Below, piece by piece: positions 20,835-36,780 of a DNA stretch of 40,000 nucleotides. A model generated the notes under the pieces. The model was not told where the DNA came from and did not search any database. It saw only the letters and a list, made by a program, of their open reading frames with translations. A program made the translations under genes and the position numbers. Within the stretch, counting starts at the first letter, position 1, and each line of letters starts with the position of its first letter. The DNA comes from an uncultured Acidobacteriota bacterium (GTDB lineage: Bacteria; Acidobacteriota; Terriglobia; Acidiferrales; UBA7541), in the NCBI GenBank assembly GCA_963751295.1, contig CAVVUA010000004.1:231000-270999 (forward strand). The letters are read 5' to 3'.

Positions 20835-21458
20835 TTATGCCCCTGCATGAGTTGTGCGACCTTTGGGCGCGGCTAGCGATTGCAAAGCTGCACGCAACAA
20901 TTTCTCGAAATTCGTTGTGCCAGCTTCGCGTTTGGCTTCGCTTGCCGCGGTTTCAGCGGCGCGCGCATCGTAGCCTAGATTGATTAACGCGGAGATTACA
21001 TCGGCTTCTGCGCCTGCGGGGGAGGCGACAGCTGGTTTCTGGGTTTCTAACACGACGGCTTCAAGCTTATCTTTTAGCTCAACGACCATGCGCTCAGCGG
21101 TTTTGCGGCCGACGCCGGGAATTTTCGTTAAGCGGCCCAAATCGTTGCCACGAATGGCAGGGACGAGTTCTTCAACACTCATGCCAGAGAGAATTTTCAA
21201 GGCCAAAGAAGGGCCGACGCCGGAAGCAGAGAGGAGCAACTCAAAAAGATGCTTCTCACGGGAGGAAACAAAGCCGTAGAGGGCGAGAGCGTCCTCGCGA
21301 ACATGCGTGTGAATGAGAAGGGTGACTTCGGTGTGGAGTTCACCGAGCGCGGCGTAAGAGGAAAGGGGGACTTGAACAAGGTAGCCTACGCCGCCGACAT
21401 CGACGAGCACTTGATTCGGGCGTTTTTCGGCGAGGCGTCCACGGAGTTGGCCAATCAT
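20835..21458 (-). CDS. ruvA: Holliday junction DNA-binding protein RuvA
   Basis: MIGQLRGRL...VDVGGVGY, HhH motifs (LTKIPGVGRKTAERM) and C-terminal domain III. Lies directly upstream of ruvB. Confidence 0.95.
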   Translation of the reverse strand: MIGQLRGRLAEKRPNQVLVDVGGVGYLVQVPLSSYAALGELHTEVTLLIHTHVREDALALYGFVSSREKHLFELLLSASGVGPSLALKILSGMSVEELVPAIRGNDLGRLTKIPGVGRKTAERMVVELKDKLEAVVLETQKPAVASPAGAEADVISALINLGYDARAAETAASEAKREAGTTNFEKLLRAALQSLAAPKGRTTHAGA

Positions 21459-21466: not shown

Positions 21467-21495
21467 AGTATTGCCGCCTTTTCTTCGCCTGTCAA
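21467..21495 (-). promoter_or_regulatory. candidate sigma70-like promoter of ruvA (TTGACA-17 nt-AATACT), with the -10 ending 8 nt before the ATG
   Basis: The minus strand reads TTGACAggcgaagaaaaggcggcAATACTggccttccATG. Five of the six -35 bases lie inside the left copy of the 14-bp target duplication. Confidence 0.3.
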
Positions 21496-21504
21496 CGCGG
21501 TTGG
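21491..21504. repeat. left copy of the 14-bp target-site duplication GTCAACGCGGTTGG
   Basis: Identical 14-mer at 36767-36780. Each copy directly abuts the outer end of a terminal inverted repeat. Confidence 0.85.
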
Positions 21505-21587
21505 GGGTTAAGTTACAGGCGGGGGAAAAGTGATACACCCCTGAAACGCAGTCTTTCTCAATTGAGCGCCGTTGAAATGGAAGTGCG
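21505..21587 (+). repeat. left terminal inverted repeat (36-bp perfect core 21505-21540, second conserved block 21564-21587)
   Basis: GGGTTAAGTTACAGGCGGGGGAAAAGTGATACACCC is identical to the reverse complement of 36731-36766. AGCGCCGTTGAAATGGAA(G/A)TGCG is also shared. The ORF track shows the same peptide, LSYRRGKSDTP, at both ends. Confidence 0.92.
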
Positions 21588-21842
21588 TGGGTTCTCAGTT
21601 AGTAGATTGAGATTTGTGCGGGAATGCGCATGGTGCTAATCACGGATGAGAATGAAAGACTTCGTCCGAAAAGGGTTGGGCACAAACGGAGAAAACCTCG
21701 TGAACGCAGGTCACTGCGACCGTCTCTCTTCCGTATCTTGTTGAAGGTGTTCGACTAAGATTATCAAGTGCACGGGTTTTGCGCATCCGGGAGCAACAAC
21801 GAGCTCCGCGGGGTAATATAAACGGTTTCGTGAGGTAGGCAA

Positions 21843-23108
21843 ATGCCGTGGTATGCATACGGCTATTTCGTCAGGCTGCCCGATCGCCGTATCGTTCATG
21901 CCGGCCATGATTTTGGTCCAACGCTCGATCTTTACACGGTAGGCAGCAGCCTCGGCGTGAAAGGCGATACGGAGGGATTCGTAATTGGCATACTGAAGGG
22001 GGAGCCGGCAAAATTGAGCGGTGGCTACGACGTTTTTGTGCTTGTGGAGCAGAGACGCGTCCGCGAGAAAGGATCTTCACCACCGCCAGCTTGGGACTTC
22101 TTCCAAAGAGATGAGGGGCGCGAATTTGTCGAGACGTTGATGGTTGGCCCTGCAAGGCTTGTTAGCAGGCCTCAAATTCAGGCGACTTTCCAGGGCCAGA
22201 AATTCCGGGCCGTAGGTAAGAATCTCTATCGGCGACCTCTGAATGAGAGTTTCTATGATTTCGAGGTAAATCATCTTCTGTGGCTACTCGGCGAGGACTG
22301 GTACAACGCCGAGATGGGGAAACATCCTGACGAGCGGCATGTCATTTTGAAATGGCGTGCAGAGCGCAACGAGCAGCTACGGAGATATCAAGATCCCAAG
22401 GACCCAGCCGGGCTAGTGCGCGCACCTGTCACTGGCGGCATGAGGGCTCTTCAAGTTTTAGCTGACGACCTCTACCAATTGGCTCACGCGCTTGAACCGC
22501 CCAGGAAGATTCTCGCCCGGCTCCGCGACATCAAGCATTTCCAGGGAGCAAGGTACGAGATCTTGACCGCTAGTCTGTTTGCTCGTTGTGGTTTTGAAGT
22601 TGAGTTTATAGAGGACAGCTCGCAAAGGAATCCTGAATTTATCGCTCAGAAAGACGGCGAAAGGATAGCGGTAGAGGCCAAGAGTAGGCATCGTGCCGGC
22701 GTCCTTAATGAGAGGGGCGACTTTCGGAAAGACGCAGCCGCAGAGATTCGTCGGTTGTACGAGGACGCAGCAGGTCAAAATCCTGGAGCATTTCCGTTTT
22801 TGATTTTCATCGATGTGAACCTGCCGTTGACGCCAGAGGTCCCCCCGCTAGAAAAGCAGTGGATCATTGAGGCGATGCAGGTGTTCGAGCACCGCGAACA
22901 AGAAGGCCTCCAAAATAGGGACACGGTTCTGATTCTCACCAATTTTGGCTGGCATTTTTCACGAGAGGAAGGCGCGCCGCCTGGGGAAAACTTTTGGGCA
23001 CGAGTCGAGCACCCCCAATATCCTGTCCGGATGAGTACTCTGGATCTTTTGGCTCGCGCACTGGGTGAATACGGAAAAGTAGTTGATGAGGAAGAACGAC
23101 GCGGTTAG
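21843..23108 (+). CDS. hypothetical protein with a C-terminal PD-(D/E)xK nuclease-like motif (casposon cargo)
   Basis: 421-aa ORF. GARYEILTASLFARCGFEVEFIEDSSQRNPEFIAQKDGERIAVEAKSR fits an E...PE...ExK restriction-endonuclease-like core. Confidence 0.55.
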   Translation: MPWYAYGYFVRLPDRRIVHAGHDFGPTLDLYTVGSSLGVKGDTEGFVIGILKGEPAKLSGGYDVFVLVEQRRVREKGSSPPPAWDFFQRDEGREFVETLMVGPARLVSRPQIQATFQGQKFRAVGKNLYRRPLNESFYDFEVNHLLWLLGEDWYNAEMGKHPDERHVILKWRAERNEQLRRYQDPKDPAGLVRAPVTGGMRALQVLADDLYQLAHALEPPRKILARLRDIKHFQGARYEILTASLFARCGFEVEFIEDSSQRNPEFIAQKDGERIAVEAKSRHRAGVLNERGDFRKDAAAEIRRLYEDAAGQNPGAFPFLIFIDVNLPLTPEVPPLEKQWIIEAMQVFEHREQEGLQNRDTVLILTNFGWHFSREEGAPPGENFWARVEHPQYPVRMSTLDLLARALGEYGKVVDEEERRG

Positions 23109-23241
23109 CGATTAGTTAACTGCAAGAATTGAATTCGGATTGAACGCCGGTCCCCGCAACCGTCGCTCGGCCAGCCATCTCGAACGAGCAGCAGGGTTTG
23201 TTTTTCAATTGCACTTGCTTTGCACAGATCGCTCCGTCTGA

Positions 23242-24021
23242 TCAGTATCCCTTGGGAGCAATTATGACTTTCACCGCGAATCCATCTTCAATTCTGCTGA
23301 GGTCGTCCTCGATACCGCGCGGATTTGTTACCCGTCCCTCAGGATCGTAGACGAAACAGATGAGTCGTTTGCAGCCTTGGTGGGCCCGATATCGGGCGAT
23401 ATCCTCGATGAGTTGGCTGCCGATCTCTTTTGCGGCTAATCCTACGCGAGTTTTCTTGGTCTCAATCACATTATCCGGTGGCAAAAAAAAATCCATACGT
23501 GACGATTTACCTGCGTAGCTGGGTGTCCACTCCTCAGTCCTTATGTCTTCGAAAAAGACCCGGAGCATCGCGTGCATGAGATCTTGAACGTCATACTCGT
23601 CAGCGACATCGATGCTCGGCCGGTTATCATGTCGGTCTCTAATTTGCATCGCTACTGTGTGAAATCGCATACACAAGAGTTCGATGGCATCGGTATGCTG
23701 AGGGAGAACGGGAACCGCAGGGGTGATGATGAGTTCGTCAGAAACATCCTTTGCGCCGGGCTCCCCCCGATACCAATCCAAGTGTCCCTGGAAAGCGAAA
23801 AGACCAGTGTAACCGCTGGCAAATTCGGTTCGCCCTTCCTCCGTCTGAACGATTTGGACGCGCTCTATCTGGTCGGGCATTATCGTGCGCCCACCCAGAA
23901 TGATCGGTTGCCAACTCTTATAGGGAACGAGTACTTGCCGCTCTAGTTGCTCACGCGTGATGCTGAGCCTCACTTCGAGAGGTGGAATCTTGGTCGTATG
24001 AATCACAACGTGGAAATTCAT
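23242..24021 (-). CDS. PD-(D/E)xK nuclease-like protein (casposon cargo, downstream of cas1 on the same strand)
   Basis: 259-aa ORF. DEYDVQDLMHAMLRVFFEDIRTEEWTPSYAGKSSRMDFFLPPDNVIETKK gives a D/E...D...ExK arrangement. Confidence 0.6.
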   Translation of the reverse strand: MNFHVVIHTTKIPPLEVRLSITREQLERQVLVPYKSWQPIILGGRTIMPDQIERVQIVQTEEGRTEFASGYTGLFAFQGHLDWYRGEPGAKDVSDELIITPAVPVLPQHTDAIELLCMRFHTVAMQIRDRHDNRPSIDVADEYDVQDLMHAMLRVFFEDIRTEEWTPSYAGKSSRMDFFLPPDNVIETKKTRVGLAAKEIGSQLIEDIARYRAHQGCKRLICFVYDPEGRVTNPRGIEDDLSRIEDGFAVKVIIAPKGY

Positions 24022-24178
24022 AATCGTCCCAGTATCTGCCCGACAGTTCGCGCAGAGCAGACATGGATTCTAGTCCTGGTTTCCGACTACGCACAAGAAT
24101 AGAAGAGCGACCTTGGGGTGAACTCAGGTTCACCGAACCGTTGCTCACTCTCAAGTGACCCTGGACGACTTCCGGGCG

Positions 24179-25396
24179 TTACGCAGAAACGCAGTTACCG
24201 CAGACCGGACTGGTGGAAAGTCGAATCTGGCCACACACTCGACAAAGCATAGGCCTCGCACGTTTAGTATCGCCCACACCTCCGTTGAGTTTTTCTCTGC
24301 CCTCGCTTTTGTGAGCCTGCGTCAACCGAGTCGCCGGAACTTGAGTCCGCACCTGTCGCATTTTCGAATCCCAAATGCATCGGGCAATCCACTCGGCAAA
24401 GGCGCTAACGGCGGTGCGCCACATTGTCGCTGTTTCCGACAGGATTTCAGCAAACGATCCCATAAGCCGACAATTGCCGTCGCGCTGTTCGAAGAACCAC
24501 TCACGCCTTAATTGTTCTTTAAGCAGTAGATCGAGAACTAGACAGTCAACCTTCGGTCGGATGGGTTCCATGAGGTCGCAAGCAAGACTGTCGCGACTGC
24601 GCAAATCGTTGTGCAGAACTCCAATACCTGGATCTAGCCCGAGTGTGGCAAGTGCCAATCGAGACTCGGACTCCAACACCGCATATAAGTAGTTCAAAAT
24701 TGCGTTGGCTGGATTGACAGCCAGTCGCGGCGAGTTGGTAAGAGGCGATATGCGGCTCCCAAATCGCCGCCAGTGTTCTGGAATTTTCGACGAATCTGAC
24801 TTGCTGAAATTCACAGGAAGCTCTCGCATTGCACTCCAATAGGCTTTAGCGCCTTTGGCTTCCCATCGCCTGATTTCCTCTTTTGATTTTGCAGTGCCGA
24901 CTAGCTTCCGTGCAGCTGCGATGTCAGATGAGCAGGGCGACTCCCTGAAGTAAGTGTTTATGATTCTTTCTTGCGCCAAGAGTTTTTCTGAAATCAATTC
25001 TCGGGCAATCTTTAGAGCAATGCCGGACTCTTGCGCAAGACTTTGGGATCGTCGGAGCCGCGCATCAGATGGGTTCACCGGGCCGGTTGTCGCCAAGACT
25101 TTTCCGTCTCGCTCAAGCAAAACGAAACTTGCGTCTTGGTCTGCGAGCCATCTAAGGGCCGCAAGCGAAACCGATCCGTCCGATCCAATAGCCACGACTC
25201 GCTTAATGCCATGCCTCACTCGGGCAAACCGACCGTAGCGACGCCTTGGCCCAATTCTGTCCTCCAAAATGAGATGGCCGCGGTCAACACACAGACGGGT
25301 GCCATAGCCGTAGAGAGTTACGACGCCACGGTGCGGCGTAATTGGAGTGAAATTGCACTGCGGTCGATCTTGCGGTACGGTCAGCGTAGCTGCCAT
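24179..25396 (-). CDS. cas1: Cas1-family integrase (casposase-like), with a C-terminal CxxC...CxxC zinc-ribbon tail
   Basis: N-terminal beta domain (LILEDRIG..., KRVVAIGSDGSVSLAALRWLADQDASFVLLERDGKV). Catalytic helical domain with WEAKGAKAYW (E), NPANAILNYLYAVLESE and GVLHNDLRSRDSLACDLMEPIRPKVD (H, D/E). The tail is CRVCGQIRLSTSPVCGNC. Confidence 0.9.
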   Translation of the reverse strand: MAATLTVPQDRPQCNFTPITPHRGVVTLYGYGTRLCVDRGHLILEDRIGPRRRYGRFARVRHGIKRVVAIGSDGSVSLAALRWLADQDASFVLLERDGKVLATTGPVNPSDARLRRSQSLAQESGIALKIARELISEKLLAQERIINTYFRESPCSSDIAAARKLVGTAKSKEEIRRWEAKGAKAYWSAMRELPVNFSKSDSSKIPEHWRRFGSRISPLTNSPRLAVNPANAILNYLYAVLESESRLALATLGLDPGIGVLHNDLRSRDSLACDLMEPIRPKVDCLVLDLLLKEQLRREWFFEQRDGNCRLMGSFAEILSETATMWRTAVSAFAEWIARCIWDSKMRQVRTQVPATRLTQAHKSEGREKLNGGVGDTKRARPMLCRVCGQIRLSTSPVCGNCVSA

Positions 25397-25794
25397 CGGA
25401 GTTCAAGCTCCCTTGGTGGTTAGGGCTTGTCGTCTGCGCAAACAGACGGCAGGCCCGTTTATTTCCTTCATTTTACCATCTAATGCCACTTCGGGCACAG
25501 GCGCGCACTTGACAGCCCAGTGGTGCACGGTGCAAATTCTATCTAGCAGCTGGGAACTAGTAGATATGCCTACGGCGGTCCCAAACCGCCCGAAGGGTAC
25601 AGTCCTCACTAGACCCGCGCTTCGCGATTCCAGTAGGAAGTAGCACTGGGCGTATCGGAATCAATCAGTATGCCCTGCATCTTGCATCGTGCAGGGAACG
25701 CAAAAGATTGATTGAGGCGAGGGAGAAAAAGGGACCTGGGCTCAGGCTGAGCAAACGAACTCCTGCAGATGACATCACTCTTGGAGTGTGTCAA

Positions 25795-26598
25795 ATGCAG
25801 GAATCGATTTTGCTTCGCAGTAGAGTTCTCTTCAGCCGTCGAGAGTTCTCAACGCTCACCGGCTTATCACTCAGAACAATCGCAAAGCTGATTGCCTCGC
25901 GAGAATTGAAGTCTATTCTCGTGGGACGGCGGCGGCTGATTCCACGTTCGGAGTTGGCTCGATTCATCAGGCGTGACCATCGCATCGGTGCGCCATCAAC
26001 GGCGGCTCTGCGACTCAGATCTGGCAACCGCAAGATTCGAAAGCCGCTCAAGAAACGCAAGACCCGTGGTGGTAATGGCCGTCGCGTAAATCAGAAACGT
26101 AGAAGCCCCCGCAAACGCGGTCGAGTGAGGCCGCAGAGAATCGGGCCAGCCATCACAGACCCACGCGTCGCCCGGGGTTTGGGGCTAATGCGTAGGGAGG
26201 GAGTGTCAGCTTCCGAGGCGGCTCGCCGAGAGCGAATGAAATTAGAGACTTTTCGGCGACGAGCGGGAAGATATCTTTATCGATCTGGCCCAGGCAAGCC
26301 TTGGAAAGCACGCAGCGAGGACCAACTGGCCTTCTCGATGACCGTCCTAACCAGCCGTGGGCCACTCGACGCTGTTATTCACAATTCGCGCGAACGGAGG
26401 CTGCTCCATCGATATGAAGTTGCCCTCAGAATGTTTCGAGCCGGTGAAGATGGAGTGGAAGCAGCACTCAAAGCGTTCAAAGGTAAGTCTGTTGGCGGAC
26501 ACAAGCTCATTACCGATACAAAACTGCTCATCGAATTAGAGGAAGCTGGGCTGCTCGATTTCGGCAGCCTCTATACTTCGTTCGGAGCACGGTCATGA
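25795..26598 (+). CDS. HTH (excisionase/MerR-like) DNA-binding protein with a highly basic linker; first gene of the polymerase operon
   Basis: FSTLTGLSLRTIAKLIASRELKSILVGRRRLIPRSELARFI is an HTH_17-like motif. It is followed by RKIRKPLKKRKTRGGNGRRVNQKRRSPRKRGR. The stop overlaps the next start (ATGA). Confidence 0.7.
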   Translation: MQESILLRSRVLFSRREFSTLTGLSLRTIAKLIASRELKSILVGRRRLIPRSELARFIRRDHRIGAPSTAALRLRSGNRKIRKPLKKRKTRGGNGRRVNQKRRSPRKRGRVRPQRIGPAITDPRVARGLGLMRREGVSASEAARRERMKLETFRRRAGRYLYRSGPGKPWKARSEDQLAFSMTVLTSRGPLDAVIHNSRERRLLHRYEVALRMFRAGEDGVEAALKAFKGKSVGGHKLITDTKLLIELEEAGLLDFGSLYTSFGARS

Positions 26599-26888
26599 GA
26601 TCGCGCGACGGGTCACAGCCTATCTGCGTGATTTGTGGCAAGGACGCTACGTTGGAATTCAACCATGCCGCGGGTAAGAAACATATACCGTGGTTCAAAA
26701 TTCCCTTTTGCGAGCAGCATCATCATCAGTTTCATCGCCTACTAGAAAGTGTGGGCCTTAACCTTCGCTACACACCCAATAAGTTGAAACGCTTGGTAAT
26801 TGCGGCACTTGCCCTGACTATAGCTCTATGGATGGTGCTTCAAGCCCTCGGGGAAACCGTCTCGCATCTTCCCGAAAAGGACACTTAG
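26595..26888 (+). CDS. small HNH-like nuclease-motif protein with a C-terminal TM helix
   Basis: CVICGKDATLEFNHAAGKKH...PFCEQHHHQFH resembles a CxxC...HNH...CxxH beta-beta-alpha-Me finger. Translationally coupled to the upstream gene. Confidence 0.5.
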   Translation: MRSRDGSQPICVICGKDATLEFNHAAGKKHIPWFKIPFCEQHHHQFHRLLESVGLNLRYTPNKLKRLVIAALALTIALWMVLQALGETVSHLPEKDT

Positions 26889-26902
26889 CCACCAAAAGAG
26901 AT

Positions 26903-29141
26903 ATGTCTGAGCAGGAATCTCCCGAAATCTTCGTGCGGGCGCATACAATCGTCCGCACGAAGAAGAACGCGAGGGATCGCAGATGGTCGCCAAAATGGCC
27001 CAAGTACTGCCTCATCTTCGATACCGAAACCACTCTTGATCCCACTCAGAAACTTAATTTTGGTGCCTACCGCCGATGCCAACGCGTGGGTGATAAATAT
27101 ATATGTGTGGCCGAAGGAATTTTCTATAAGGATGATCTTCCTGAACGCAAATTAAAACTCGTACAGCGATACAAGAGCAACCCTAAGACTCTTCCATCGA
27201 TTGAAGTGTTTCCCGCGCAAATGGCGCTCGGTCTGATGAGTCGCTCTGCATTTGTCAGTCGAATCTTTTGGAAATCCGTGCGGAAAGGGGAGCTGATTGT
27301 TGGTTTTAATTTGCCGTTCGACCTATCGCGATTGGCGATCAAAGCGACTGCCGGAAAAAAGGGTGACTGGTCCTTAGCACTCTCCCAGCTTTGGGAGAAT
27401 CCCAAGACAGGGCGAATCGTACCAAACCCGAAGCGACCCCGAATTATTGTTGACGCTCAAAACAGCAAGATGGCTTTTATCAAACTAGGCAGCATTTTGC
27501 ACAAGAAGGAGTGGCCAAAAGAAGGTCGCTTCCTTGATCTGCGAACTCTCGGCTGGGCGTTAAGGAATGTGTCCTTTAGCTTGAAAGTTGCCTGTAAGAA
27601 GTTCCACGTCAAAGGGAAACCAGATCACAAGCCCTCAGGAGAGATCAATTCCGAAGAGATGGAGTACTGTCGAGGTGATGTGGCGGCCACGCACCGCTTG
27701 CTAAATGCGATGATGGCGGAATTTAATCGGAATCCTCTTGATTTGCATCCCGACAAAGCCTACTCACCTGCTTCGATTGCCAAAGACTATTTGACGGAAA
27801 TGGGAATCAAGCAGCCCAAGGATCATTTCGAAGTCCCTAACAAGACTTTGGGAATTGCAATGCAAAGTTATTATGGCGGTCGGGCAGAGTGCCGGATCAG
27901 AAAAACTCCCGTTCCAGTGATCCACACTGACTTCACCAGCCAATATCCAACTGTCAACGCACTCTTGGGAAACTGGAATGTGCTTACTTCCAGCTCTGTC
28001 CGGTTTGTAAATTGCAAAGCATCTGCCAAAAAGCTGCTTTCGAAAGTATCTCTGAAAAACATGTTTGATCCGGGTTTCTGGAAACAGCTCTCGTTCTTTG
28101 CGCTTGTAAAGCCCAAGAACGACATTCTTCCAGTGAGAACGATTTACAAAGGAAGAACGCAGAATATCGGACTTAATTATCTGACTTCTGACAAACCCAT
28201 TTGGTATGCGGGCCCCGATCTCATAGCTTCCAAAATCCTCACCAAGAGAGCTCCCAAAATCCTAAAAGCGCTCCGCATGGTGCCACACGGTCGACAATTA
28301 AATTTGCAATCTCGAAATCTACAGGGAATGGTGGAAATAAATCCTGCAAAGGATGATTTCTATCGGAAGGTAATCGAACAGAGAATCTCCCATAAAGCAC
28401 AAAACAAGCCTTTGGCTGACTTTCTCAAAGTACTGGCAAACTCGGGAAGTTATGGCTTGTTCGTGGAGGTAAATACCGAAACGAAGAAAAAAGAAACGAA
28501 AGTGCCTTATTTTTCCGGCGAGAAAAAAGGAAGAATCCCCTCTACCTACGTAGAAAAGCCAGGCGCTTGGTATTTTCCTCCGGTGGCATCTCTCATTACA
28601 TCTGGTGGCAGGTTATTACTCGCGATGCTGGAAAAGAGTGTCGATGAAAGTAGGGGAAGCTACTTGTTCTGCGATACTGATTCGCTTTGCATCGTGGGGA
28701 CGGAAACGGGGAGTTTTGTTCCTTGCGTAGGGGGGAAGCATTTTTCCAAAGGAAAACCAGGCTTCAGAGCACTGTCACTGCGGGAAGTAAGATCAATCGC
28801 AAGTAAATTCAGAAAACTAAACCCGTACAATCCTTCCCTCGTAACTGAAATCCTCAAGATCGAAGACATCAACTTCTTGGATGACGATCCCAAGAAACGA
28901 TTCCGCCAGCTTTTTGGCTACGCGATTTCCGCGAAAAGATATGCGCTTTACACAAGATCGGGAAGTGACATTCAAATTGAAAAAGCCAGCGGGCACGGTC
29001 TCGGATATCTCTGTGCGCCAAAGGAAAGAGAAGATGATGAGAAAACTGATGAGGAAACAGATGAGGATGAAGCGCCGCAGTGGGTAACGGAAGCTTGGGA
29101 CTTTCTTTTGAGGAAAGAACTGGGATTGCACTCCAAGGAAC
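26903..29141 (+). pseudogene. family-B DNA polymerase, N-terminal ~746 codons (exonuclease and polymerase core), truncated by an IS3 insertion
   Basis: ExoI CLIFDTETT, ExoII GFNLPFDLSRL, ExoIII YCRGDVAATH, SYYGGR, motif A HTDFTSQYPTV, motif B KVLANSGSYGLF, motif C LFCDTDSLCI, KxY AISAKRYALY. The track ORF 26828..29272 continues into IS sequence. Confidence 0.9.
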
Positions 29142-29201
29142 TGTCTTGCCTCAGCTGGAACCGGAGAAGGCGTTCTTCCGTTAAGATAACGGAGAGGGCG
29201 C

Positions 29202-29510
29202 ATGAGAAAAGGGCGAAAGCACTACACCGGAGAAGAGAAGGTTGCCATCCTGAGACGGCACTTGTTGGATAAGGTGCCGGTTTCTGATCTCTGTGAGGAG
29301 CATGGACTGCAGCCGACCGTGTTCTACCGCTGGCAGAAAGAGTTCTTCGAGAATGGCGCGGCCGCCTTCCAGGGCAAGGGCCGGCAGGACCACCAAGGTG
29401 AACAACAACGGATCGAGTTCCTGGAAAAGAAGATCCACACCAAAGACGAGGTGCTGGCTGAATTGATGGCCGAGCACATCGCCTTAAAAAAAAGTCTTGG
29501 GGAGCTCTGA
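29202..29510 (+). CDS. IS3-family transposase OrfA (HTH)
   Basis: MRKGRKHYTGEEKVAILRRHLLDKVPVSDLCEEHGLQPTVFYRWQKEF is typical of IS3 OrfA. Confidence 0.9.
   Translation: MRKGRKHYTGEEKVAILRRHLLDKVPVSDLCEEHGLQPTVFYRWQKEFFENGAAAFQGKGRQDHQGEQQRIEFLEKKIHTKDEVLAELMAEHIALKKSLGEL
29486..29494 (+). other. programmed -1 ribosomal frameshift site (A AAA AAA AG) joining OrfA to OrfB
   Basis: A run of eight A followed by G. A shift from the orfA frame to -1 reads ...KKSWGALTKVWVPPDV, which merges with the OrfB N-terminus. Confidence 0.75.
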
Positions 29511-29515
29511 CCAAA

Positions 29516-30547
29516 GTGTGGGTGCCGCCCGATGTGCGGGACCAGGTGGTGGATTTCGTCCGGTGCTGGTCGGAAAAAACAGAGATCGGTACCGGACGAT
29601 TCATCCACTGGCTGGGCGTACGACCCAGCAAGTTCTACGACTGGCGGGAGCGCTATGGGCACGTCAATGAGCACAACGGTTGGGTTCCTCGCGATTTCTG
29701 GCTACAACCGTGGGAGAAGCAAGCCATCATCGGCTTCCACCGGGAACATCCCTTGGAAGGCTATCGACGACTGACGTTCATGATGCTGGACGCCGATGTT
29801 GTGGCCGTCAGCCCCTCCAGCGTTTGGCGAGTGCTCCAACAAGCCGGATTGCTCTCCCGATGGAAGGGTAAGCCTTCGCGCAAGGGGAGCGGTTTCGAGC
29901 AACCACCGCACGCGCACCAGCATTGGCACATCGATGTTTCCTACATCAACGTGAGCGGCACGTTCTATTACCTGTGCAGCATTCTGGATGGCTATAGCCG
30001 TTCGATCGTTCATTGGGATCTGCGGGAATCGATGACCGAAGCGGAGATCGAAGTCATTTTGCAACGAGCGCGGGAGAAATATCCGGAAGCGAAACCGCGG
30101 ATCATCTCCGACAACGGACCACAGTTTATTGCCAGGGATTTCAAGGAATTCATTCGCATCGCGGGGATGACCCACGTGCGAACCTCGCCCGGCTATCCGC
30201 AATCGAACGGGAAACTTGAACGCTGGCACAAATCGCTAAAAGCGGAGTGCATCAGGCCAGGTACACCGTTGACGAGAGAAGACGCGGTGCGTTTGATTCA
30301 AGCCTACGTGGATCACTACAACACCGTGCGCCTGCACAGCGCTATCGGCTATGTGACGCCGCACGATATGCTCGCCGGGAGACAGGCTGAGATCCACGCG
30401 GCACGCGATCGCAAGCTGGAGGAAGCGCGTCACCAACGGCAGTTCCGGCGGGAGGCCAGATCGCTGCTTGCACATTCTTCGAACACGACTACAATGACCT
30501 CGCCAGGTGAAACAGAAGCGGGCTCTGCAGGGATGCAACCATGCTGA
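29516..30547 (+). CDS. IS3-family transposase OrfB (DDE/rve integrase core)
   Basis: HWHIDVSYI (D), IISDNGPQFIA (D) and PQSNGKLERWHKSLK (E). Frame is -1 relative to orfA. Confidence 0.9.
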   Translation: MWVPPDVRDQVVDFVRCWSEKTEIGTGRFIHWLGVRPSKFYDWRERYGHVNEHNGWVPRDFWLQPWEKQAIIGFHREHPLEGYRRLTFMMLDADVVAVSPSSVWRVLQQAGLLSRWKGKPSRKGSGFEQPPHAHQHWHIDVSYINVSGTFYYLCSILDGYSRSIVHWDLRESMTEAEIEVILQRAREKYPEAKPRIISDNGPQFIARDFKEFIRIAGMTHVRTSPGYPQSNGKLERWHKSLKAECIRPGTPLTREDAVRLIQAYVDHYNTVRLHSAIGYVTPHDMLAGRQAEIHAARDRKLEEARHQRQFRREARSLLAHSSNTTTMTSPGETEAGSAGMQPC

Positions 30548-30735
30548 GGGATAACCTGGTAGGACTCATCGAGCCGATGCGAATCAGCGCGGGAGTTGAT
30601 CCTCTCGCGCTGAGCATCCAGAAACAGGCATCGGACGATAGATCCTCATGCCTTGAAAATCCCCGTCCCGAATGGGCGGAATCTTCACTAACGGAAAACG
30701 TCACCTCTCCATTTCAGGCTGAGCCAGCACAGAAC

Positions 30736-31427
30736 CATCATGGTTGGACTTGCCCGCAATGATGCGAATGGTGGTAACAACCCCCAACGTATTGAAGCAT
30801 CAAAGGCCAGAGTGGCTGGGACCGTTCAATTTCTTCTTGTTTCCTTTGCTCTCTGAAGTTGGCGGATATCCTTCGGGTTTCGACAAATCCAATTTTATGT
30901 TCATAACCCCCAACGAATCGAAGCGAAGCAAGTGGAAATCGCTCGGCGGGATCAATTTATATGACGGGCGAAGCTATCAGATCGCGATGCGCCCCACGGC
31001 AAAGCAGGACAAGGTAATTCCAGAATCTTTTCGAATCATCCTGAACCAATACTTGGGCAAGGCTGAGGTGAAATCGCTAGCCCCGGACGGAACGCCATGC
31101 ACCGGAACTACTCAAGGGTTGCTCCTTAGAGCAAGAATTGTTGCGGGCAAATTGATTCCCGTCGGTAAAGAGACGGATCGAAAGTGGGAGCACGGTGGAG
31201 ATCCGAGTATGCTGGATTCCCAGGTCCATGTATATGAGAAGCAGCGAAAAATGGTTATCGCTAACGCTTTGGAGAGGAACACATGGTTGGCCATCGGCGT
31301 TAGGCGCTTGATGAGAGAAACAAAGCTAAGCCAAGCACCAGTCTCCAACGCTATCAGGGGCAAGCCGGTCCGTCCTGGCACTCTGGCGATCATCAGAGAG
31401 ACGGCAGCCAGGATACTGGCCGAGTAA
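30736..31427 (+). pseudogene. family-B DNA polymerase, C-terminal ~230 codons separated from the N-terminal part by the IS3 element
   Basis: Deleting 29142-30735 joins ...GAA C|CA TCA TGG TTG GAC... This gives ...HSKEPSWLDLPAMMRMVV..., in frame with track ORF 30744..31427. The reconstituted ORF is ~976 codons from the ATG at 26903. Confidence 0.85.
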
Positions 31428-31433
31428 TGGTAC

Positions 31434-31580
31434 GGGACTTGTCCGGTAAGGCGACTTCTGCTTATCCGGTTGTTTCAGCAAAACCGGATATCTTGGGCGT
31501 CGTCGACGCCAGCACCACAACGGCTGGGTGGCGACCTGAAGCAACCGGATAAGCAAGAGGCGACTAATCGGGAGTTATGG
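31434..31580 (+). repeat. palindromic cargo motif, copy A (GGGACTTGTCCGGTAAGGCGACT...AATCGGGAGTTATGG), interrupted in its loop by a 101-bp insert
   Basis: Starts 7 nt after the PolB stop. With 31457-31557 removed, it aligns at about 33 of 40 positions with copy B. Confidence 0.7.
31457..31557. mobile_element. MITE-like 101-bp insert with 16-bp terminal inverted repeats and an 8-bp duplication AGGCGACT
   Basis: TCTGCTTATCCGGTTG ... CAACCGGATAAGCAAG match at 14 of 16 positions as inverted repeats. AGGCGACT sits at 31449-31456 and 31558-31565. The internal palindrome is GGCGTCGTCGACGCC. Confidence 0.35.
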
Positions 31581-32243: not shown

Positions 32244-32259
32244 GCGTGAAATCCATTTG

Positions 32260-33101
32260 GTCGAGTAGCCGGGCGCCATCGCTGGCGCCCAGCCCTCTAA
32301 GAACCGGACTTGAAGGTTTCCCATTCATCCGGCTCGAGCACTCAAAAACGCCCCCCTGAACAACGAGGACGCGGCCTGATTCAAAAACGAAGCAGACCTA
32401 CTCGATACTGACTTGCTGCCGATTCGCACGACGGTGGAAAATCCACCAATCGTGTGTGAAGCCGCACCAACGGGTTGCCCCGTCGTCATTTGCTTTGCTT
32501 CATGCATCGGTTCCTCAAGAGTTCTCGAGCTGAGCACCAACAGGAAGTCAGCTCCGTTTCCGGCGAGGTGATCTTGTCCCAACCTGGCGACGCAACCTCT
32601 ATCTGCCCGATTACAGGGCAGCCTTCGCTTGCTCCCATTTCCGTTACCCGCATCGCCATCAGTGCCATCTTGCGATGGACTTTCCCCTTGCGAGGAGCGC
32701 TACGGGCTTACCCTGTTCCGCTGAAATGACGCGATCGGTTAGATCTGCTCCCTACGCCGGCAGTGTTGATTACCCATGACAGAGGAACCGGAAGCCTCTG
32801 TACTCACTGCAAGAAGAGCCACGCAGCATTTTAGGCTCTCTTCGTCTGACGACGCTTACGAGCATTTGTATATTCTGATCGTACGATCAAGCCTAGGCCC
32901 GTCTCCGCCTAATGCTGGCAGGTACACCGTGGCCTCACGGTTTCGGTGCCGCTCTTGCGAGCGTGGATACATTTTTCCAAGGGCTCCAGAACAGTTCGTT
33001 ACCTCCCCGCTCTGCCTTGTAGGCTACGTGCGATGGGACGCACGGTCTGATCGAGTTCCTCCTCTCCAGACAATCATCTTCAGCAGCTTTACAGGTCGCA
33101 C
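32260..33101 (-). mobile_element. ORF-less group II intron (842 nt)
   Basis: On the minus strand the 5' end is GUGCGAC. Domain V is at 32301-32335. The D6-like helix has a bulged A 7 nt from a ...CUACUCGAC 3' end. The D5-to-3'-end segment (41 nt) aligns with that of the neighbouring intron and shares AGCGAUGG. No credible ORF inside. Confidence 0.62.
32301..32335 (-). ncRNA. group II intron domain V of the ORF-less intron
   Basis: GAGCCGGAU-GAAUGG-GAAA-CCUUC-AA-GUCCGGUUC. It has the AGC triad, a GNRA tetraloop, a 2-nt bulge and a 9-bp basal helix. Confidence 0.65.
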
Positions 33102-33130
33102 TCCGGTAAGACGACTAATCAGGACTTGAC
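33102..33130 (+). repeat. palindromic cargo motif, copy C (TCCGGTAAGACGACTAATCAGGACTTGAC), abutted by the 5' end of the ORF-less intron
   Basis: It lies 15-20 nt downstream of the stop of the 252-aa minus-strand gene. On the minus strand it reads ...CCTGATTAGTCGTCTTACCGGA|GUGCGAC. Confidence 0.65.
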
Positions 33131-33145
33131 CGCGAGGACAACAAG

Positions 33146-33904
33146 TCACAAGTCGGGCAGGGCTGTTATGAAGCCCTTTGGGCGCTCGCTAACAGGATTT
33201 GGGGCATCAACGCTGACATGAGGATTCCATTCGTAAGTTATTTCTGCCCAGCCCCCGCTGGTGGTCAAGTGGTACGGCAAATGGTCTGATGTGCCAACGC
33301 AAACAGTGTCGTGCATCACTCGCCCGGTCTCCTCAATTGTCCAAGTATAACTCCACTCAAGACAGGGATGTCCCGCGTAGGTTTTTAGCCCTTCTGGATG
33401 CATGTTTACGCCATGATAGTTGGACCAGAAACTCGTCTCTATGGAATCGAAGCTGTACCCAATCGTACGCGGATTGCTCATGTGCAAGCGCAGCTCAAAA
33501 AAACCGTCCAACGGCGGCATATCTCTCGGAATCAATTTTATCCATAGTGATGAGCTTTTGTGACCGAACATTGCATCGCCACGAAAATATCGGTCATCTC
33601 GGACCCGGATGTATTCAAGATCACCCGCGATGCGAATGCTCTTTGAGTCCCCTGCTTCTGCTGTGCGGTCAACATGCTGCCATCCATGCTCGCGGTCGGG
33701 CGGGACTGCTTCGATCGTCATCCACTCTTTCGGGAGTTTTGGATCTGTCGATTGCAAATGCATACGCCAGCTTTTCGTTCTGGAAATCGCCCAATCCGTG
33801 CGAAGTAGCCAGTAATCCGCTCGTTTGTCTGACCAGTTTTTTGCAGCCCAAATTGAACCCGCCGCAATCAGCGCGGCAATCCCATACAATAGAATCTTTT
33901 TCAT
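33146..33904 (-). CDS. secreted hypothetical protein (cargo)
   Basis: 252-aa ORF with the signal peptide MKKILLYGIAALIAAGSIWAA. No family recognised. Confidence 0.6.
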   Translation of the reverse strand: MKKILLYGIAALIAAGSIWAAKNWSDKRADYWLLRTDWAISRTKSWRMHLQSTDPKLPKEWMTIEAVPPDREHGWQHVDRTAEAGDSKSIRIAGDLEYIRVRDDRYFRGDAMFGHKSSSLWIKLIPRDMPPLDGFFELRLHMSNPRTIGYSFDSIETSFWSNYHGVNMHPEGLKTYAGHPCLEWSYTWTIEETGRVMHDTVCVGTSDHLPYHLTTSGGWAEITYEWNPHVSVDAPNPVSERPKGFITALPDL

Positions 33905-34039
33905 GAGCCTGAGAGAAGATTAGAGCACTTCCTGTCTAGATTCCAATCACGCTTGGAGCCGCTCAGCTATCTAGTAATGACCCGTGTACGGGCCTAAGTG
34001 TCGCGGTAGGGACGACCATCGCTGATCGCCCCCCGCACA

Positions 34040-34071
34040 GAACCGTACGGGCGCTTCTACGCATACGGCTC
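34040..34071 (-). ncRNA. group II intron domain V (32 nt)
   Basis: GAGCCGUAU-GCGU-AGAA-GCGC-CC-GUACGGUUC. The AGC triad and 2-nt bulge are present. Confidence 0.85.
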
Positions 34072-35634
34072 CCACCTTGGATGAGTGGCGAGGAAACGAG
34101 CTATAGGATAAGGATGCAAAACGCGTGGGGCGGGAATCCACCGCTTGAAGATCCGGGTGGTCCGGATCCACGACGTTGGTCGTTGACTGCGACGGCGTAG
34201 AAGGAGCCGCCACAATCGCCGCAAGCGTTGTCCGAAGATACTCAACCGGACGATGTTTCCCGGGACCGCATGGTAGCGGTAGTAGCCGTTCACAACCTTT
34301 CGTAGCCATGCACCGACGTCGGCAATCGGCTCGTGCATGCGGAGGCGCAGTTCTGCTTTGAGTGCGTGCAGCTTCGCCACCATGCGTTTCTTCGCCGTTT
34401 TCCGCCAGACGATGAACGACCCGTTGCTCCGGCGCTTCCCGCAGTGATGCGTAAAGCCCAGGAACGTGAAGGTCTCCGGCTTCCCTACTCCACGCTTCTC
34501 CCGATCTTGGGCAGCGAACCGCCCAAACTCGATCAGTCGTGTTTTCTCCGGATGTAGTTCCAATCCGAATTTAGCCAATCGTTCCCGAAATGCTTCCAGG
34601 AATCGCTCGGCCTCCACTCGGTTTTCGAAACCCACCACCAGATCATCGGCGTAGCGGACGACGATCACATCACCCGTGGCCACTTTCTGGCGCCAAGCCT
34701 CGATCCACAGGTCGAATACGTAATGCAGGTACACATTGGCTAGCAATGGAGAAACCACTGCTCCTTGCGGTGTTCCTACCTTACTCTCCGACCATTGGCC
34801 GTCTTCCGATATCCCCGCCTTCAACCATTTCTGGATCAGGCGCAGGATCCGGCGATCGGCTACGCGGTGCTCAACAAACTTCATCGTCCATTCGTGACTC
34901 ATATTGTCAAAGAAGCCTCGAATGTCGGCGTCAAGCACCCAGTTCACGCGCTTCCTTTGGAGGCCCACCGTCAGCGCGTCCAGCGCTTGGTGCGGGCTGC
35001 GTCCGGGACGGAACCCATACGAGAATCCTTGGAAGTCCACCTCATAAATCTGGTTGAGAATGGTCACCACGGCTTGCTGTACGATTTTGTCTTCCAGCGC
35101 CGCAATACCCAACGGGCGTTTCCGCCCGTCAGCCTTCGGTATGTAGACTCTTCGTGAGGGCTGTGCCCGATACGCTCCTCGGTGTACCCGGTTGTGTAGA
35201 TCGGTAAGCCGACCTTCTAACCCGGTTTCATACTCCTGCCATGTCACGCCATCTACTCCCGGCGCGGCTTGCCGCTTTAAGGCGTAGTAGCTGTCCCGGA
35301 GTAAATCCACGCTCACATGGTGTAGCAAAGCTGTGAACCGTTCTTGCCTCCTTTTCTTTGCTGCTTCTCGCACACCGCCCAATCCCTGGGACACTCGTTC
35401 TCCGCTCTGTGTCGGGTGAGTGTTGGGTTGAACGATGTTCTCCTTGGCCCGCACCCTTTTCTCCCCAGGCTCCGCCGAAGATCGCTCCTCTTTGTTCGTC
35501 TGGTTCATCGATAGTATGGTGCGGTCCGACTCCTCTGGAGCGTGCGCGTCCGCCTTCTGGCTTTGCGCCTTCGCGGACCGGCCTCGTTCCCTTTCGGGCC
35601 GAGGCGCTCCAGAGGTCTCCCGGTTCTCGTGCAT
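34057..35634 (-). CDS. group II intron-encoded reverse transcriptase/maturase
   Basis: RT blocks (APGVDGVTW, RRVYIPKADGRKRPLGI, VLDADIRGFFDNMSH, GTPQGAVVSPLLANVYL, VVRYADDLVVGF) and a maturase/X region. No C-terminal HNH endonuclease. The first ~90 aa are low-complexity, so the start may be the internal ATG at 35508. Confidence 0.92.
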   Translation of the reverse strand: MHENRETSGAPRPERERGRSAKAQSQKADAHAPEESDRTILSMNQTNKEERSSAEPGEKRVRAKENIVQPNTHPTQSGERVSQGLGGVREAAKKRRQERFTALLHHVSVDLLRDSYYALKRQAAPGVDGVTWQEYETGLEGRLTDLHNRVHRGAYRAQPSRRVYIPKADGRKRPLGIAALEDKIVQQAVVTILNQIYEVDFQGFSYGFRPGRSPHQALDALTVGLQRKRVNWVLDADIRGFFDNMSHEWTMKFVEHRVADRRILRLIQKWLKAGISEDGQWSESKVGTPQGAVVSPLLANVYLHYVFDLWIEAWRQKVATGDVIVVRYADDLVVGFENRVEAERFLEAFRERLAKFGLELHPEKTRLIEFGRFAAQDREKRGVGKPETFTFLGFTHHCGKRRSNGSFIVWRKTAKKRMVAKLHALKAELRLRMHEPIADVGAWLRKVVNGYYRYHAVPGNIVRLSIFGQRLRRLWRLLLRRRSQRPTSWIRTTRIFKRWIPAPRVLHPYPIARFLATHPRWEPYA

Positions 35635-35916
35635 GTTGTTTCTCAGCGTGCGCGGGTTCTTAGACTACGCAGGACCGACTGCTCGCTCGCGTTTATCGCG
35701 AAAACAGCCGTATTGCCTTCCTCCAATCAGGAGAGAGTCGGCGTCCTGGTTTGCGTTTTTCGAAGTTCAATAGCCCGGCCCACCGATACCCCTGTCTACG
35801 CTTCGGGCGACACCTCGCGATGTCACCTGCAAGACTGAGGGCCAAGATGGAGTCGCTGTCTCCTTTCTTGTGGGACTCTTTCATTCCCTACAACACGCCG
35901 GTTTAACCCGGCGCAC

Positions 35917-36682: not shown

Positions 36683-36766
36683 CGCATTTCCATTTCAACG
36701 GCGCTGCATTGCGCGAGCACGCGTTTCCACGGGTGTATCACTTTTCCCCCGCCTGTAACTTAACCC
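36683..36766 (-). repeat. right terminal inverted repeat (perfect core 36731-36766)
   Basis: Its reverse complement matches 21505-21587: 36/36 in the core, then two further conserved blocks separated by a divergent ~14-nt spacer. Confidence 0.92.
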
Positions 36767-36780
36767 GTCAACGCGGTTGG
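36767..36780. repeat. right copy of the 14-bp target-site duplication GTCAACGCGGTTGG
   Basis: Matches 21491-21504 at 14 of 14 positions in direct orientation. It immediately follows the TIR end. Confidence 0.85.

Follow-up and report, generated by a model that had tools for sequence, protein, structure and literature searches.

The gene at 24179-25396 of the window (the whole 40-kb stretch of DNA analysed here) encodes, judging from its sequence, a Cas1-type transposase, or casposase, with an intact active site. The protein is a member of a large family of casposons, a kind of self-replicating transposon, in Acidobacteriota, and within that family it belongs to a branch whose casposases end in a zinc ribbon only; the architecture that combines ribbon and HTH was already published in 2014 for casposon family 3. 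As a whole, the data are probably best explained if this is the casposase of a 15.3-kb casposon whose subclade kept the ribbon and lost an HTH-like domain that was ancestral to the family. The features on which this account is based are collected in Table 1.

Table 1. Features of the casposon and of its insertion site, in window coordinates
Feature	Position	Strand	Basis
Putative sigma-70-type ruvA promoter, the "leader" beside the insertion	21467..21495	(-)	promoter scan
Left TSD copy, 14 bp, GTCAACGCGGTTGG	21491..21504	.	direct repeat; holds 5/6 bases of the -35 box
Left TIR	21505..21587	.	first 36 nt (GGGTTAAGTTACAGGCGGGGGAAAAGTGATACACCC) identical to right end
Cargo, 421 aa, weak Mrr-type restriction endonuclease match	21843..23108	(+)	Pfam Mrr_cat E 0.0016, below family cutoff
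Cargo, 259 aa, DpnII/MboI-type restriction endonuclease domain	23242..24021	(-)	Pfam PF18742 E 1.9e-52
Casposase gene	24179..25396	(-)	Cas1-family integrase, 405 aa, catalytic E179/H262/E277
Cys4 zinc ribbon codons, CRVCGQIRLSTSPVCGNC, residues 385-402	24191..24244	(-)	conserved Cys and modelled hairpins
P-A-T-R-L-T-Q codons, residues 354-360, in disordered linker between core and ribbon	24317..24337	(-)	conserved columns
Accessory protein, divergent from casposase gene	25708..26598	(+)	HTH_17/excisionase-type N-domain
Small 97-aa protein, CxxC...NH...CxxH motifs	26595..26888	(+)	position and motif
Family B DNA polymerase (PolB), first ~750 codons	26903..29141	(+)	Pfam DNA_pol_B_2 E 2e-7 and motifs
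IS3-family insertion sequence, splits PolB	29142..30731	(+)	rve/HTH_21 transposase; flanked by 4-bp duplication GAAC
Remaining C-terminal part of PolB, displaced by the IS	30732..31427	(+)	colinear with L001 PolB
Group II intron material in cargo region	32260..35879	(-)	Rfam RF02005, RF02012, RF00029; TIGR04416
Right TIR	36683..36766	.	inverted repeat
Right TSD copy, 14 bp, GTCAACGCGGTTGG	36767..36780	.	direct repeat

The Cas1 core

The open reading frame begins with ATG, and all of the Cas1 sequence blocks cited in the initial annotation are found in its product. Residues 31-312 match Pfam Cas_Cas1 (E 1e-41), and the protein also matches TIGR00287 cas1 (121.8 bits, cutoff 71.7). The best PDB match, both by sequence and by fold, is the casposase of M. 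mazei (6OPM), at 24-25% identity. Residues E179 (in WEAKGAKAYW), H262 and E277 (both in GVLHNDLRSRDSLACDLMEPIRP) correspond in the alignment to the E/H/E active site of that structure, and the spacing of 15 residues between H262 and E277 equals that of the published M. mazei residues H232 and E247 (PMC6977970). The same three residues are invariant in an alignment of 91 sequences. The catalytic signature was rightly described as intact. An AlphaFold model (mean pLDDT 76.9) places an N-terminal beta domain at residues 16-104, where the initial annotation had recognised beta strands, and an alpha-helical domain at residues 111-351.

The element and its genes

The casposon spans 21505-36766 (15,262 bp) and is bounded by inverted repeats (TIRs) of about 85 nt and a 14-bp target duplication (TSD). 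The TIRs are complementary at 88% over 51 nt and at 80% over 45 nt. One of the two putative restriction cargo proteins, that encoded at 23242..24021, also matches the PADLOC model Aga_Helical-REase (E 3.8e-30). The accessory protein divergent from the casposase passes the thresholds of both Pfam HTH_17 (E 1.2e-7) and TIGR01764, and its C-terminal domain is conserved in the casposon family; homologues occupy the equivalent position in 54 of 82 sequences (81 loci and the window). The 97-aa protein that follows gives nothing above threshold in Pfam, HNH models included; of the 82 sequences searched, 24 have it at this place, with the HTH gene on one side and PolB on the other. Its position and motifs suggest that it is probably a divergent HNH nuclease; HNH genes have been described in casposons (PMC4046053).

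The polymerase carries the motifs FDTET (ExoI), DFTSQYP (A), KVLANSGSYG (B) and FCDTDS (C). The weak and partial match to DNA_pol_B_2, its sole Pfam match, had suggested a protein-primed or primer-independent type, and nothing was found for it in PDB or NCBIfam. Motif C fits the PolB_CDTDS group, which contains a casposon PolB (PMC7544198). The IS3 element that interrupts the gene is absent from two elements (L001 and L002) that are otherwise 99.99% identical to that of the window, and the intact PolB of L001 has 976 aa. The window copy is thus damaged by a split PolB and may no longer be autonomous.

The region beyond PolB holds two sets of group II intron domains. One set (35655-35879 and 34000-34073) flanks an RT/maturase reading frame at 34057-35634, and the other (32260-32337 and 32897-33045) has no reading frame. 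The possibility that the reverse transcriptase is defence (DRT) or retron cargo was rejected, since the protein reaches 357 bits with TIGR04416 (cutoff 300) and Rfam intron domains lie on both sides of its gene.

Related loci

The genes that flank the casposon in the window are bacterial (ruvAB, folK, a GGDEF protein gene and peptidase genes), and 77 of the 79 related loci listed are titled as Acidobacteriota/Terriglobia MAGs. A PolB homologue is present at 73 of 79 related genome loci, and gene order is the same at all loci where an HTH-like and an HNH-like neighbour can be recognised. TIRs together with direct repeats of 13-15 bp (mostly 14-15) occur at 32 related loci. Ribbon-only elements that are complete, or nearly so, occur at three of the loci (L085, L082 and L083). 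Members of the casposon family often stand in tandem arrays.

The C-terminal tail

In the AlphaFold model the casposase core is followed by a disordered linker (residues 349-378, pLDDT below 50) and then by two short beta hairpins (381-394); the hairpin region, with a pLDDT of about 75, carries C385, C388, C399 and C402 in the pattern CxxC-N10-CxxC. The PATRLTQ motif in the linker is nearly invariant, and a constant interval of about 30 residues separates it from the first Cys. Of 172 family members, 154 have all four ribbon Cys, 145 of these 154 with the 10-residue spacer, and in 76 full-length relatives the CxxC-N10-CxxC pattern likewise closes the protein, with no more than a few residues before the stop codon. 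The tail is thus conserved. The window ribbon reaches none of the Pfam zinc-ribbon cutoffs (Zn_ribbon_Thio2 scores 17.7 bits against 27.1, and DZR_2 is also sub-threshold), while the ribbon of one relative (P0093), scanned alone, passes DUF7577 with 31.5 bits against 28. The linker to the ribbon is basic, and so, as a rule, is the residue after the first Cys: 69 of 76 ribbon-only proteins and about 55 of 78 proteins with ribbon and HTH have R or K there. The ribbon is putatively a DNA-binding module, most likely one that provides extra DNA contacts.

The tail could in principle have concealed an HTH, or have been created by a frameshift. The structure model consists of linker and ribbon only in this region, with no HTH predicted. 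A search of the six-frame translation of the window with an HMM of the relatives' C-terminal domain found no credible remnant of the lost domain in any frame; the best hit (E 0.007) lies inside the right TIR and was judged to be due to chance. A hidden HTH and a frameshift were therefore rejected, and the Cys4 tail is genuine.

The 172 full-length relatives fall into 78 with ribbon and HTH, 76 with ribbon only, 15 with HTH only and three with neither, the last being truncated or degenerate. Among the representatives at 50% identity that could be classified, 51 likewise combine ribbon and HTH. In such proteins the ribbon precedes a helical, HTH-like domain of about 110 aa, modelled in a long-form protein as six helices (pLDDT 79-86) and weakly matching HTH_31/HTH_3. 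In most relatives, down to 36% identity, the HTH-like domain is accompanied by a ribbon that is spaced identically and lies equally far from PATRLTQ. Because most relatives carry the two together, the ribbon appears to be the older, shared part. This distribution suggests that the ribbon-only subclade lost the helical HTH-like domain and that another group lost the ribbon. Since either was lost but essentially never both, there seems to be partial redundancy between ribbon and helical domain, and a casposase can apparently do with the ribbon alone.

The term HTH-like reflects the weak Pfam matches and the helical model. Homology to the HTH of family 2 casposases was considered and set aside, because a profile search of the family's helical domain found no similarity to any PDB chain, 6OPM included, at E values up to 10. 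The PolB C-terminus looks like the casposase HTH domain by eye (a likeness reported for family 2), but the HMM missed full-length PolB and the idea was dropped. It was likewise considered whether the HTH_17 neighbour compensates for the lost domain. The ribbon-only elements have no consistent arrangement: the HTH_17 domain is fused in the window element and encoded by a separate 69-aa gene in L083, and no HTH_17 gene was detected in L082 or L084. Compensation is accordingly not proposed.

Target site and a model for insertion

Insertion in this casposon family takes place at the -35 box of promoters of the sigma-70 type, in the window that of ruvA. At all 31 of the 31 sites that could be oriented, TTGAC is followed by 17 or 18 nt, TAnnnT and then a co-directional host gene, and 30 of 33 TSDs begin with GTCAA. 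In the putative ruvA promoter, 17 nt separate the -35 box TTGACA (21495-21490) from the -10 box AATACT; the promoter scores 10/12 consensus matches, compared with 0.1 expected in shuffles. The ruvA gene itself lies at 20835-21458 on the minus strand, and Pfam matches to RuvA and RuvB identify the ruvAB genes of the flank. The uninterrupted ruvA-promoter site, reconstructed as a 26-mer, has no exact match in the metagenome contigs. Neither the -35 box targeting nor the size of the acidobacterial family is mentioned in the casposon literature cited here. GTCAA-type targets are used by all three architectures, and an HTH-only element (L008) occupies the same ruvA site as the ribbon-only element of the window, so neither appendage visibly sets the core target motif.

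A model for insertion can be proposed along the following lines. As with the M. mazei casposase, the 3'-OH ends of the TIRs would be linked by oligomers of the Cas1 core to two phosphates that lie staggered at a distance of 14 bp, in a target that would start with GTCAA(A/C), the -35 box of the promoter. After insertion the -35 and -10 boxes would stay with the host gene, and the duplicated target on the promoter side could be used again, which would generate tandem arrays. The C-terminal appendage would most likely add DNA contacts, either on the leader/promoter side or within the subterminal TIR; in family 2 casposases, whose HTH is essential, that domain has been proposed, though not proven, to act in this way. 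The ancestral appendage of the family would have consisted of ribbon and HTH-like helical domain, and the subclade of the window would have dropped the helical domain, with the ribbon alone apparently sufficient.

Alternative explanations

The initial annotation described the ribbon as standing instead of the casposase HTH, an alternative DNA-binding module that would mark a separate casposase lineage. The protein does have a ribbon without an HTH, and the ribbon-only proteins form a coherent sublineage: one cluster of 72 proteins includes 69 of them (by UPGMA on identity distances of the core domain, which is cruder than a proper phylogeny). That part of the proposal holds, but the sublineage is a branch of a larger family in which the same ribbon precedes an HTH-like domain in most members; the ribbon therefore pre-dates the loss, and a casposase with ZBD and HTH was already known in family 3 (PMC4046053). 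Replacement of the HTH is accordingly improbable. A small ribbon on a long flexible tether, as modelled, could instead serve contacts between proteins, either in oligomerisation or by recruiting PolB, the HNH-like protein, the excisionase-like protein or host RNA polymerase. This would fit with the GTCAA motif being uncorrelated with either appendage, and with targets that are promoters, where a host protein bound to the promoter could conceivably be contacted. The basic residue after the first Cys and the basic linker fit nucleic-acid binding at least equally well, and we consider a protein-protein role unlikely.

It might also be argued that the ribbon-only casposase is crippled and inactive, its elements persisting vertically or being moved in trans by the full-length casposases of tandem neighbours. 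A mutant M. mazei casposase from which the HTH was deleted does not integrate (PMC6977970), the window copy has a broken PolB with IS and intron insertions, and tandem arrays put other casposons close by. However, the 76 distinct ribbon-only sequences, at 64-100% identity, retain the catalytic residues, the four Cys and the position of the stop codon. Among ribbon-only genes dN/dS is 0.07-0.09 in the core and 0.26-0.35 in the tail, which thus changes several times faster than the core; the low core values argue against inactivity, and the faster change of the tail speaks against the account favoured here. TIRs of the window type are found at at least three different promoter sites in metagenomes, neighbouring elements have different TIR sequences, which makes mobilisation in trans less easy, and a family 1 casposase works without any C-terminal domain (PMC8464041). 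Loss of function is thus very unlikely. The last alternative, a Cas1 of CRISPR adaptation whose array and cas2 lie beyond the window, draws on the matches to generic cas1 models and can be regarded as effectively refuted by the boundaries of the element: the gene sits with PolB inside a unit delimited by TIRs and TSDs. The 40-kb window contains no CRISPR-like or tandem repeat array and no cas2 among its scanned open reading frames, so that within the window the annotation as a stand-alone Cas1, and as a casposase, is upheld. No cutoff for a CRISPR-subtype Cas1 in NCBIfam is reached, and all scores fall far below (Cas1c, for example, gives 95 bits against 385).

Relationship to known casposons and to CRISPR Cas1

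The closest likeness, on the evidence of architecture and gene content, appears to be with family 3, for which casposases with ZBD and HTH fusions were described in 2014 (PMC4046053). Family 3 shares with the window element a bacterial host (presumed for the window), intergenic insertion, casposase and HTH protein and, probably, an HNH-like gene and a PolB of the "CDTDS" kind. The casposase of AceAut-C1, with a C-terminal ZBD and HTH, has the architecture of most relatives found here. The types listed for this family in 2014 were ZBD with HTH, an N-terminal ZBD with a C-terminal HTH, and no extra domain; a ZBD only, as in the subclade of the window, was not among them.

Family 2 (M. mazei, 6OPM; A. 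boonei) shares the E/H/E active site, a TSD of about 14 bp, a target of specific sequence with a "leader" that must lie upstream, and insertion in tandem (PMC6977970, PMC4779613). It differs in being archaeal, in its targets (tRNA genes or intergenic sites) and in having a C-terminal HTH without a zinc ribbon. That HTH, of 60-70 residues, directly follows the Cas1 core, where the window protein has linker and ribbon only. The C-terminal domain of the M. mazei casposase is essential, its deletion mutant being inactive, yet it is invisible in the crystal and does not bind DNA alone, and the role of the HTH is still open (PMC6977970). The initial annotation took it that characterised casposases carry an HTH, which is true only for family 2. 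The family 1 casposase of Ca. Nitrosopumilus koreensis resembles that of the window in lacking an HTH and nevertheless integrates sequence-specifically, so the HTH is not universally needed (PMC8464041). Family 1 differs in being thaumarchaeal, with no C-terminal appendage, a 13-bp TSD and the 3' end of the aEF-2 gene as target, and its PolB is protein-primed (PMC8464041); the window casposase has a bacterial context and a C-terminal ribbon. CRISPR Cas1 (A. fulgidus, 4N06; type I-C, 8D3L) shares the fold and the catalytic residues but lacks the extra C-terminal linker and ribbon, and the window gene lies in a TIR-bounded transposon with no Cas2 or array.

Broader significance

Taken together, these elements might constitute an undescribed bacterial casposon family present in hundreds of species. 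Such a family would integrate precisely at the -35 box (of ruvA, valS-like and other genes) and leave the promoter intact, would reuse the promoter-proximal copy of the target to build tandem arrays, and would include three architectures with the same type of target, the ribbon alone being sufficient. We put this broader reading forward tentatively, as possible rather than probable. If it is true, tandem growth beside a "leader" would give bacteria a naturally occurring counterpart to the growth of CRISPR arrays, and the three architectures would form a natural deletion series for the function that the C-terminal domain has in casposases. If promoter targeting holds, it would be an unusual choice of safe site for a bacterial transposon, and the analogy of casposon target and leader with CRISPR repeat and leader would be sharpened. 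Because there are three natural appendages on related cores, with known TIRs and a defined promoter-like target, integration assays could show which module reads what.

Related genes are at present annotated as "CRISPR-associated endonuclease Cas1" in soil Acidobacteriota. Because casposase genes bear this label, CRISPR counts in surveys of soil Acidobacteriota are inflated.

The casposase and its Cas1 core

The open reading frame that the initial annotation read as a Cas1 with an intact catalytic signature (listed with the other features in the table below) does encode such a protein. Residues 31-312 match Pfam Cas_Cas1 (E 1e-41), and E179, H262 and E277, which align with the E/H/E active site of the Methanosarcina mazei casposase (6opm_A), are invariant in 91 of 91 aligned homologues. 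The published M. mazei pair H232/E247 has the same 15-residue H-to-E spacing (PMC6977970). The protein scores above the cutoff of the generic NCBIfam cas1 model and falls far below the cutoff of every CRISPR-subtype cas1 model in NCBIfam. Among solved structures the top sequence match is 6opm_A (E 7.9e-22), with Archaeoglobus Cas1 a close second. An AlphaFold2 model built from the homologue alignment (mean pLDDT 76.9) begins with the Cas1 N-terminal beta domain, followed by a helical catalytic domain that closes with a long helix (323-351), and a Foldseek search with this model ranks the 6OPM chains first (E 1e-17).

Features of the casposon and its target site (window positions)
Feature	Position	Strand	Details
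Casposase ORF	24179-25396	minus	405 aa, ATG start
P-A-T-R-L-T-Q motif	24317-24337		casposase residues 354-360, disordered linker
TIRs	21505-21587 and 36683-36766		outermost 36 nt identical
Direct repeat (TSD)	21491-21504 and 36767-36780		GTCAACGCGGTTGG; flanks TIRs
Promoter match	21467-21495	minus	TTGACA, 17 nt, AATACT; 9 nt upstream of ruvA start codon
Restriction-endonuclease-like genes	21843-24021		casposon cargo
IS3-family element	29142-30731		ends TGTCTTGCCTCAGC / TGTGCTGGCTCAGC; 4-bp duplication GAAC
Group II intron material	32260-33045 and 34000-35879	minus	casposon cargo
RT/maturase ORF of intron	34057-35634		in one intron copy

The casposon and its contents

The description of this Cas1 as stand-alone holds in that the 40-kb window contains no CRISPR-like array, but the gene is part of a complete casposon of 15,262 bp, bounded by terminal inverted repeats (TIRs) and direct repeats. 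Three genes diverge from the casposase gene: an HTH_17/excisionase-like gene, a gene whose 97-aa CxxC..NH..CxxH product resembles an HNH protein in position and motif alone, and a family B polymerase gene. Motif C of the polymerase, FCDTDS, bears the signature of the 'PolB_CDTDS' group, one member of which is a casposon polymerase (PMC7544198). Comparison with a 99.99%-identical locus from another assembly (L001) revealed that the window PolB gene is broken after about codon 750 by the IS3-family element; the same casposon in L001 and in a second locus, L002, has an intact PolB of 976 aa.

As cargo the casposon carries two restriction-endonuclease-like genes along with group II intron material. 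One of the restriction-like genes is weakly Mrr-like; the second contains a DpnII/MboI-type domain and additionally hits PADLOC 'Aga_Helical-REase'. No methyltransferase was seen beside them. Besides the intron copy with the RT/maturase ORF there is another set of intron domains that lacks one, and short fragments recur near 29255, 31432, 31862 and 35958. L001 (1-1057) departs from the window at 35934 and runs into an IS91/Y2-transposase gene: either L001 has taken up another insertion, or its assembly was joined at a repeated intron, the element's right end not having been observed there.

The zinc-ribbon tail and the probable loss of a neighbouring domain

The predicted tail consists of a disordered stretch (349-378) and then two short hairpins (381-394) bearing the four cysteines, with no helix-turn-helix (HTH) in the AlphaFold2 model. 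Relatives number in the thousands in the protein database, the best 120 being 58-100% identical. Of 172 full-length sequences, drawn from database hits and from ORFs at 79 genome loci, CxxC-N(9-11)-CxxC is present in 154, the spacer being exactly 10 residues in 145 of these, and 76 relatives terminate only a few residues from the ribbon, like the window protein. The tail is therefore conserved. It is also not a frameshift product, because an HMM of the extra domain of longer relatives, run against every frame of the window, picks up no remnant. In five ribbon-only genes with DNA sequence, dN/dS is 0.07-0.09 for the core and 0.26-0.35 for the tail where synonymous sites are unsaturated; the tail is under looser selection than the core, yet constrained.

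In most of the full-length relatives the first cysteine lies 29-31 residues past the P-A-T-R-L-T-Q motif. This motif is nearly invariant, keeps its fixed distance of about 30 residues from the ribbon and is retained in all three architectures (ribbon+HTH, ribbon-only and HTH-only); no known function was found for it.

The ribbon does not, however, stand in place of an HTH, as had been proposed, since the same ribbon precedes an HTH-like domain in most relatives. Nearly all relatives in species-representative genomes are about 512 aa long, 53-63% identical, and continue past the ribbon for about 112 more residues. The model of one such protein, P0093 (pLDDT 78), has six helices C-terminal to the ribbon (pLDDT 79-86). 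Individual sequences of this extra domain give weak HTH_31/HTH_3 matches (best E 7e-4), and its profile found no match in the PDB. A whole-library search with 50% clustering returned 932 clusters with E no higher than 1e-30; representatives among the matches listed are mostly 500-540 aa, and the classifiable ones comprise 51 with ribbon and long tail, about 15 with HTH and no ribbon, and 3 with ribbon only. When core domains are clustered by distance, ribbon-only proteins make up 69 of the 72 members of one cluster, and HTH-only proteins form a separate subgroup elsewhere. Only three of the 172 sequences lack both modules, all truncated or degenerate. The simplest reading of these sequences is that ribbon+HTH was ancestral, the window subclade having lost the HTH domain and another group the ribbon.

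Distribution and mobility of the family

A genome scan gave 235 genomic matches, and 77 of the 79 listed loci are titled Acidobacteriota/Terriglobia MAGs; the host of the window is probably of this group as well. In 73 of the 79 the casposase has a PolB homologue alongside it, and the HTH-like and HNH-like genes, where detected, keep the same order. Both element ends were found in 32 loci. These elements span roughly 7.6-17 kb, most of them 12-17 kb, and have TIRs beginning GGG(G)[TA] and direct repeats of 13-15 bp (mostly 14-15). Acidobacterial-type casposons also occur in contigs titled 'Patescibacteria group bacterium' (L050) and 'Candidatus Micrarchaeota archaeon' (L055), which are probably mis-binned rather than cases of cross-domain transfer.

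Eleven metagenome contigs contain the window-type TIR, which lies at the ruvA promoter and at no fewer than two further promoters, and one of these contigs (L085) carries a ribbon-only casposase 87% identical to that of the window. This argues for movement of ribbon-only elements. At rc position 1639, L085 (contig Ga0210388_10003899) shares with the window both the TIR and, base for base, the 14-bp duplication CCAACCGCGTTGAC, but has a different distal flank, which suggests rearrangement or further insertion beside one of the two copies.

Promoter targeting and tandem arrays

GTCAA opens 30 of 33 target-site duplications (TSDs); on the opposite strand it reads TTGAC, the -35 box of a promoter of the sigma-70 type. 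Each of the 31 oriented sites, in the window and 30 related loci (L008-L083), has TTGAC, a gap of 17 or 18 nt and a TAnnnT hexamer, followed by a host gene in the same orientation. These genes include ruvA (three times) and a valS-like gene (about nine genomes), with about 17 distinct loci overall. An independent promoter scan of the window recovered the ruvA promoter with 10 of 12 matches (0.1 expected by chance). Because the TSD starts with the -35 box, insertion duplicates the box without disrupting the host promoter.

At about half of the sites (roughly 16 of 30 loci), the promoter-distal TSD copy abuts the TIR of another casposon, so that the elements form tandem arrays with a common duplicated target. 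The L083 locus, for example, reads window-type TIR, duplication, its own ribbon-only element, duplication, ruvA (positions 831-918 and 15861-15913). The promoter appears to act like a leader in tandem casposon arrays. In the window itself the sequence beyond the distal copy (from 36781 on) does not resemble a TIR. Tandem casposons with a common TSD are known in Methanosarcina (PMC4779613); no mention of promoter targeting by casposons was found in the papers searched.

The TIR interior (21512-21533, GTTACAGGCGGGGGAAAAG) is similar to the spacer region of the ruvA promoter (21472-21497, GTTGACAGGCGAAGAAAAGG) and, in the opposite orientation, to the valS-type leader CTTACAGGCGCGAGAAAAG (L053, L060, L066 and others). 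The likeness is absent from other leaders. It could stem from a common motif bound by the casposase, be the footprint of an old TIR or have arisen by coincidence.

Integration and the role of the C-terminal appendage

The fold, active site, element boundaries, duplication length, target motif and ribbon conservation are established. By analogy with M. mazei (PMC6977970), Cas1-core oligomers would attach the 3' ends of the TIRs at positions staggered by 14 bp. Going by the structure and biochemistry of that enzyme, the integration site would also be sequence-specific and dependent on an upstream 'leader' (PMC6977970).

The chances seem about even that the C-terminal appendage is an auxiliary DNA-binding module, acting at the leader/promoter or at subterminal TIR sequence. 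This role is supported by the almost invariable retention of one module or both, by the basic linker with its nearly invariant motif, and by the essential HTH of family 2. The appendage may instead have a protein-protein role. That it chooses the core target is argued against by the occurrence of ribbon-only, HTH-only and ribbon+HTH elements alike at GTCAA-type sites, and by an HTH-only element (L008) at the same ruvA site as the ribbon-only window element.

Relationship to known casposons

Family 3 casposases have a zinc-binding domain (ZBD) plus an HTH that are both C-terminal (AceAut-C1), an N-terminal ZBD with a C-terminal HTH (NitAL212-C1), or neither (PMC4046053, Krupovic et al. 2014). 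The AceAut-C1 fusion is the kind of architecture seen in most window relatives, and host, gene content and domain architecture make the window casposon a putative family 3 member. The C-terminal HTH is a feature of family 2, whereas the window tail is a ribbon without HTH. The generalization that characterised casposases carry a C-terminal HTH fits family 2 but not a characterised family 1 enzyme, which lacks one (PMC8464041).

The suggestion of a distinct casposase lineage is partly supported: the ribbon-only tail is a real, conserved mark of a subclade, yet it stems from losing the adjacent domain, not from replacing it, inside an architecture already described for family 3. More surprising, and reaching past that suggestion, are the family-level results, namely the size of the family in Acidobacteriota, the -35 targeting of promoters, the tandem arrays and the natural series of appendage variants. 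In many soil metagenomes, the source annotation of protein database matches calls these casposases 'CRISPR-associated endonuclease Cas1', so that figures based on cas1 may overstate how prevalent CRISPR is in Acidobacteriota.
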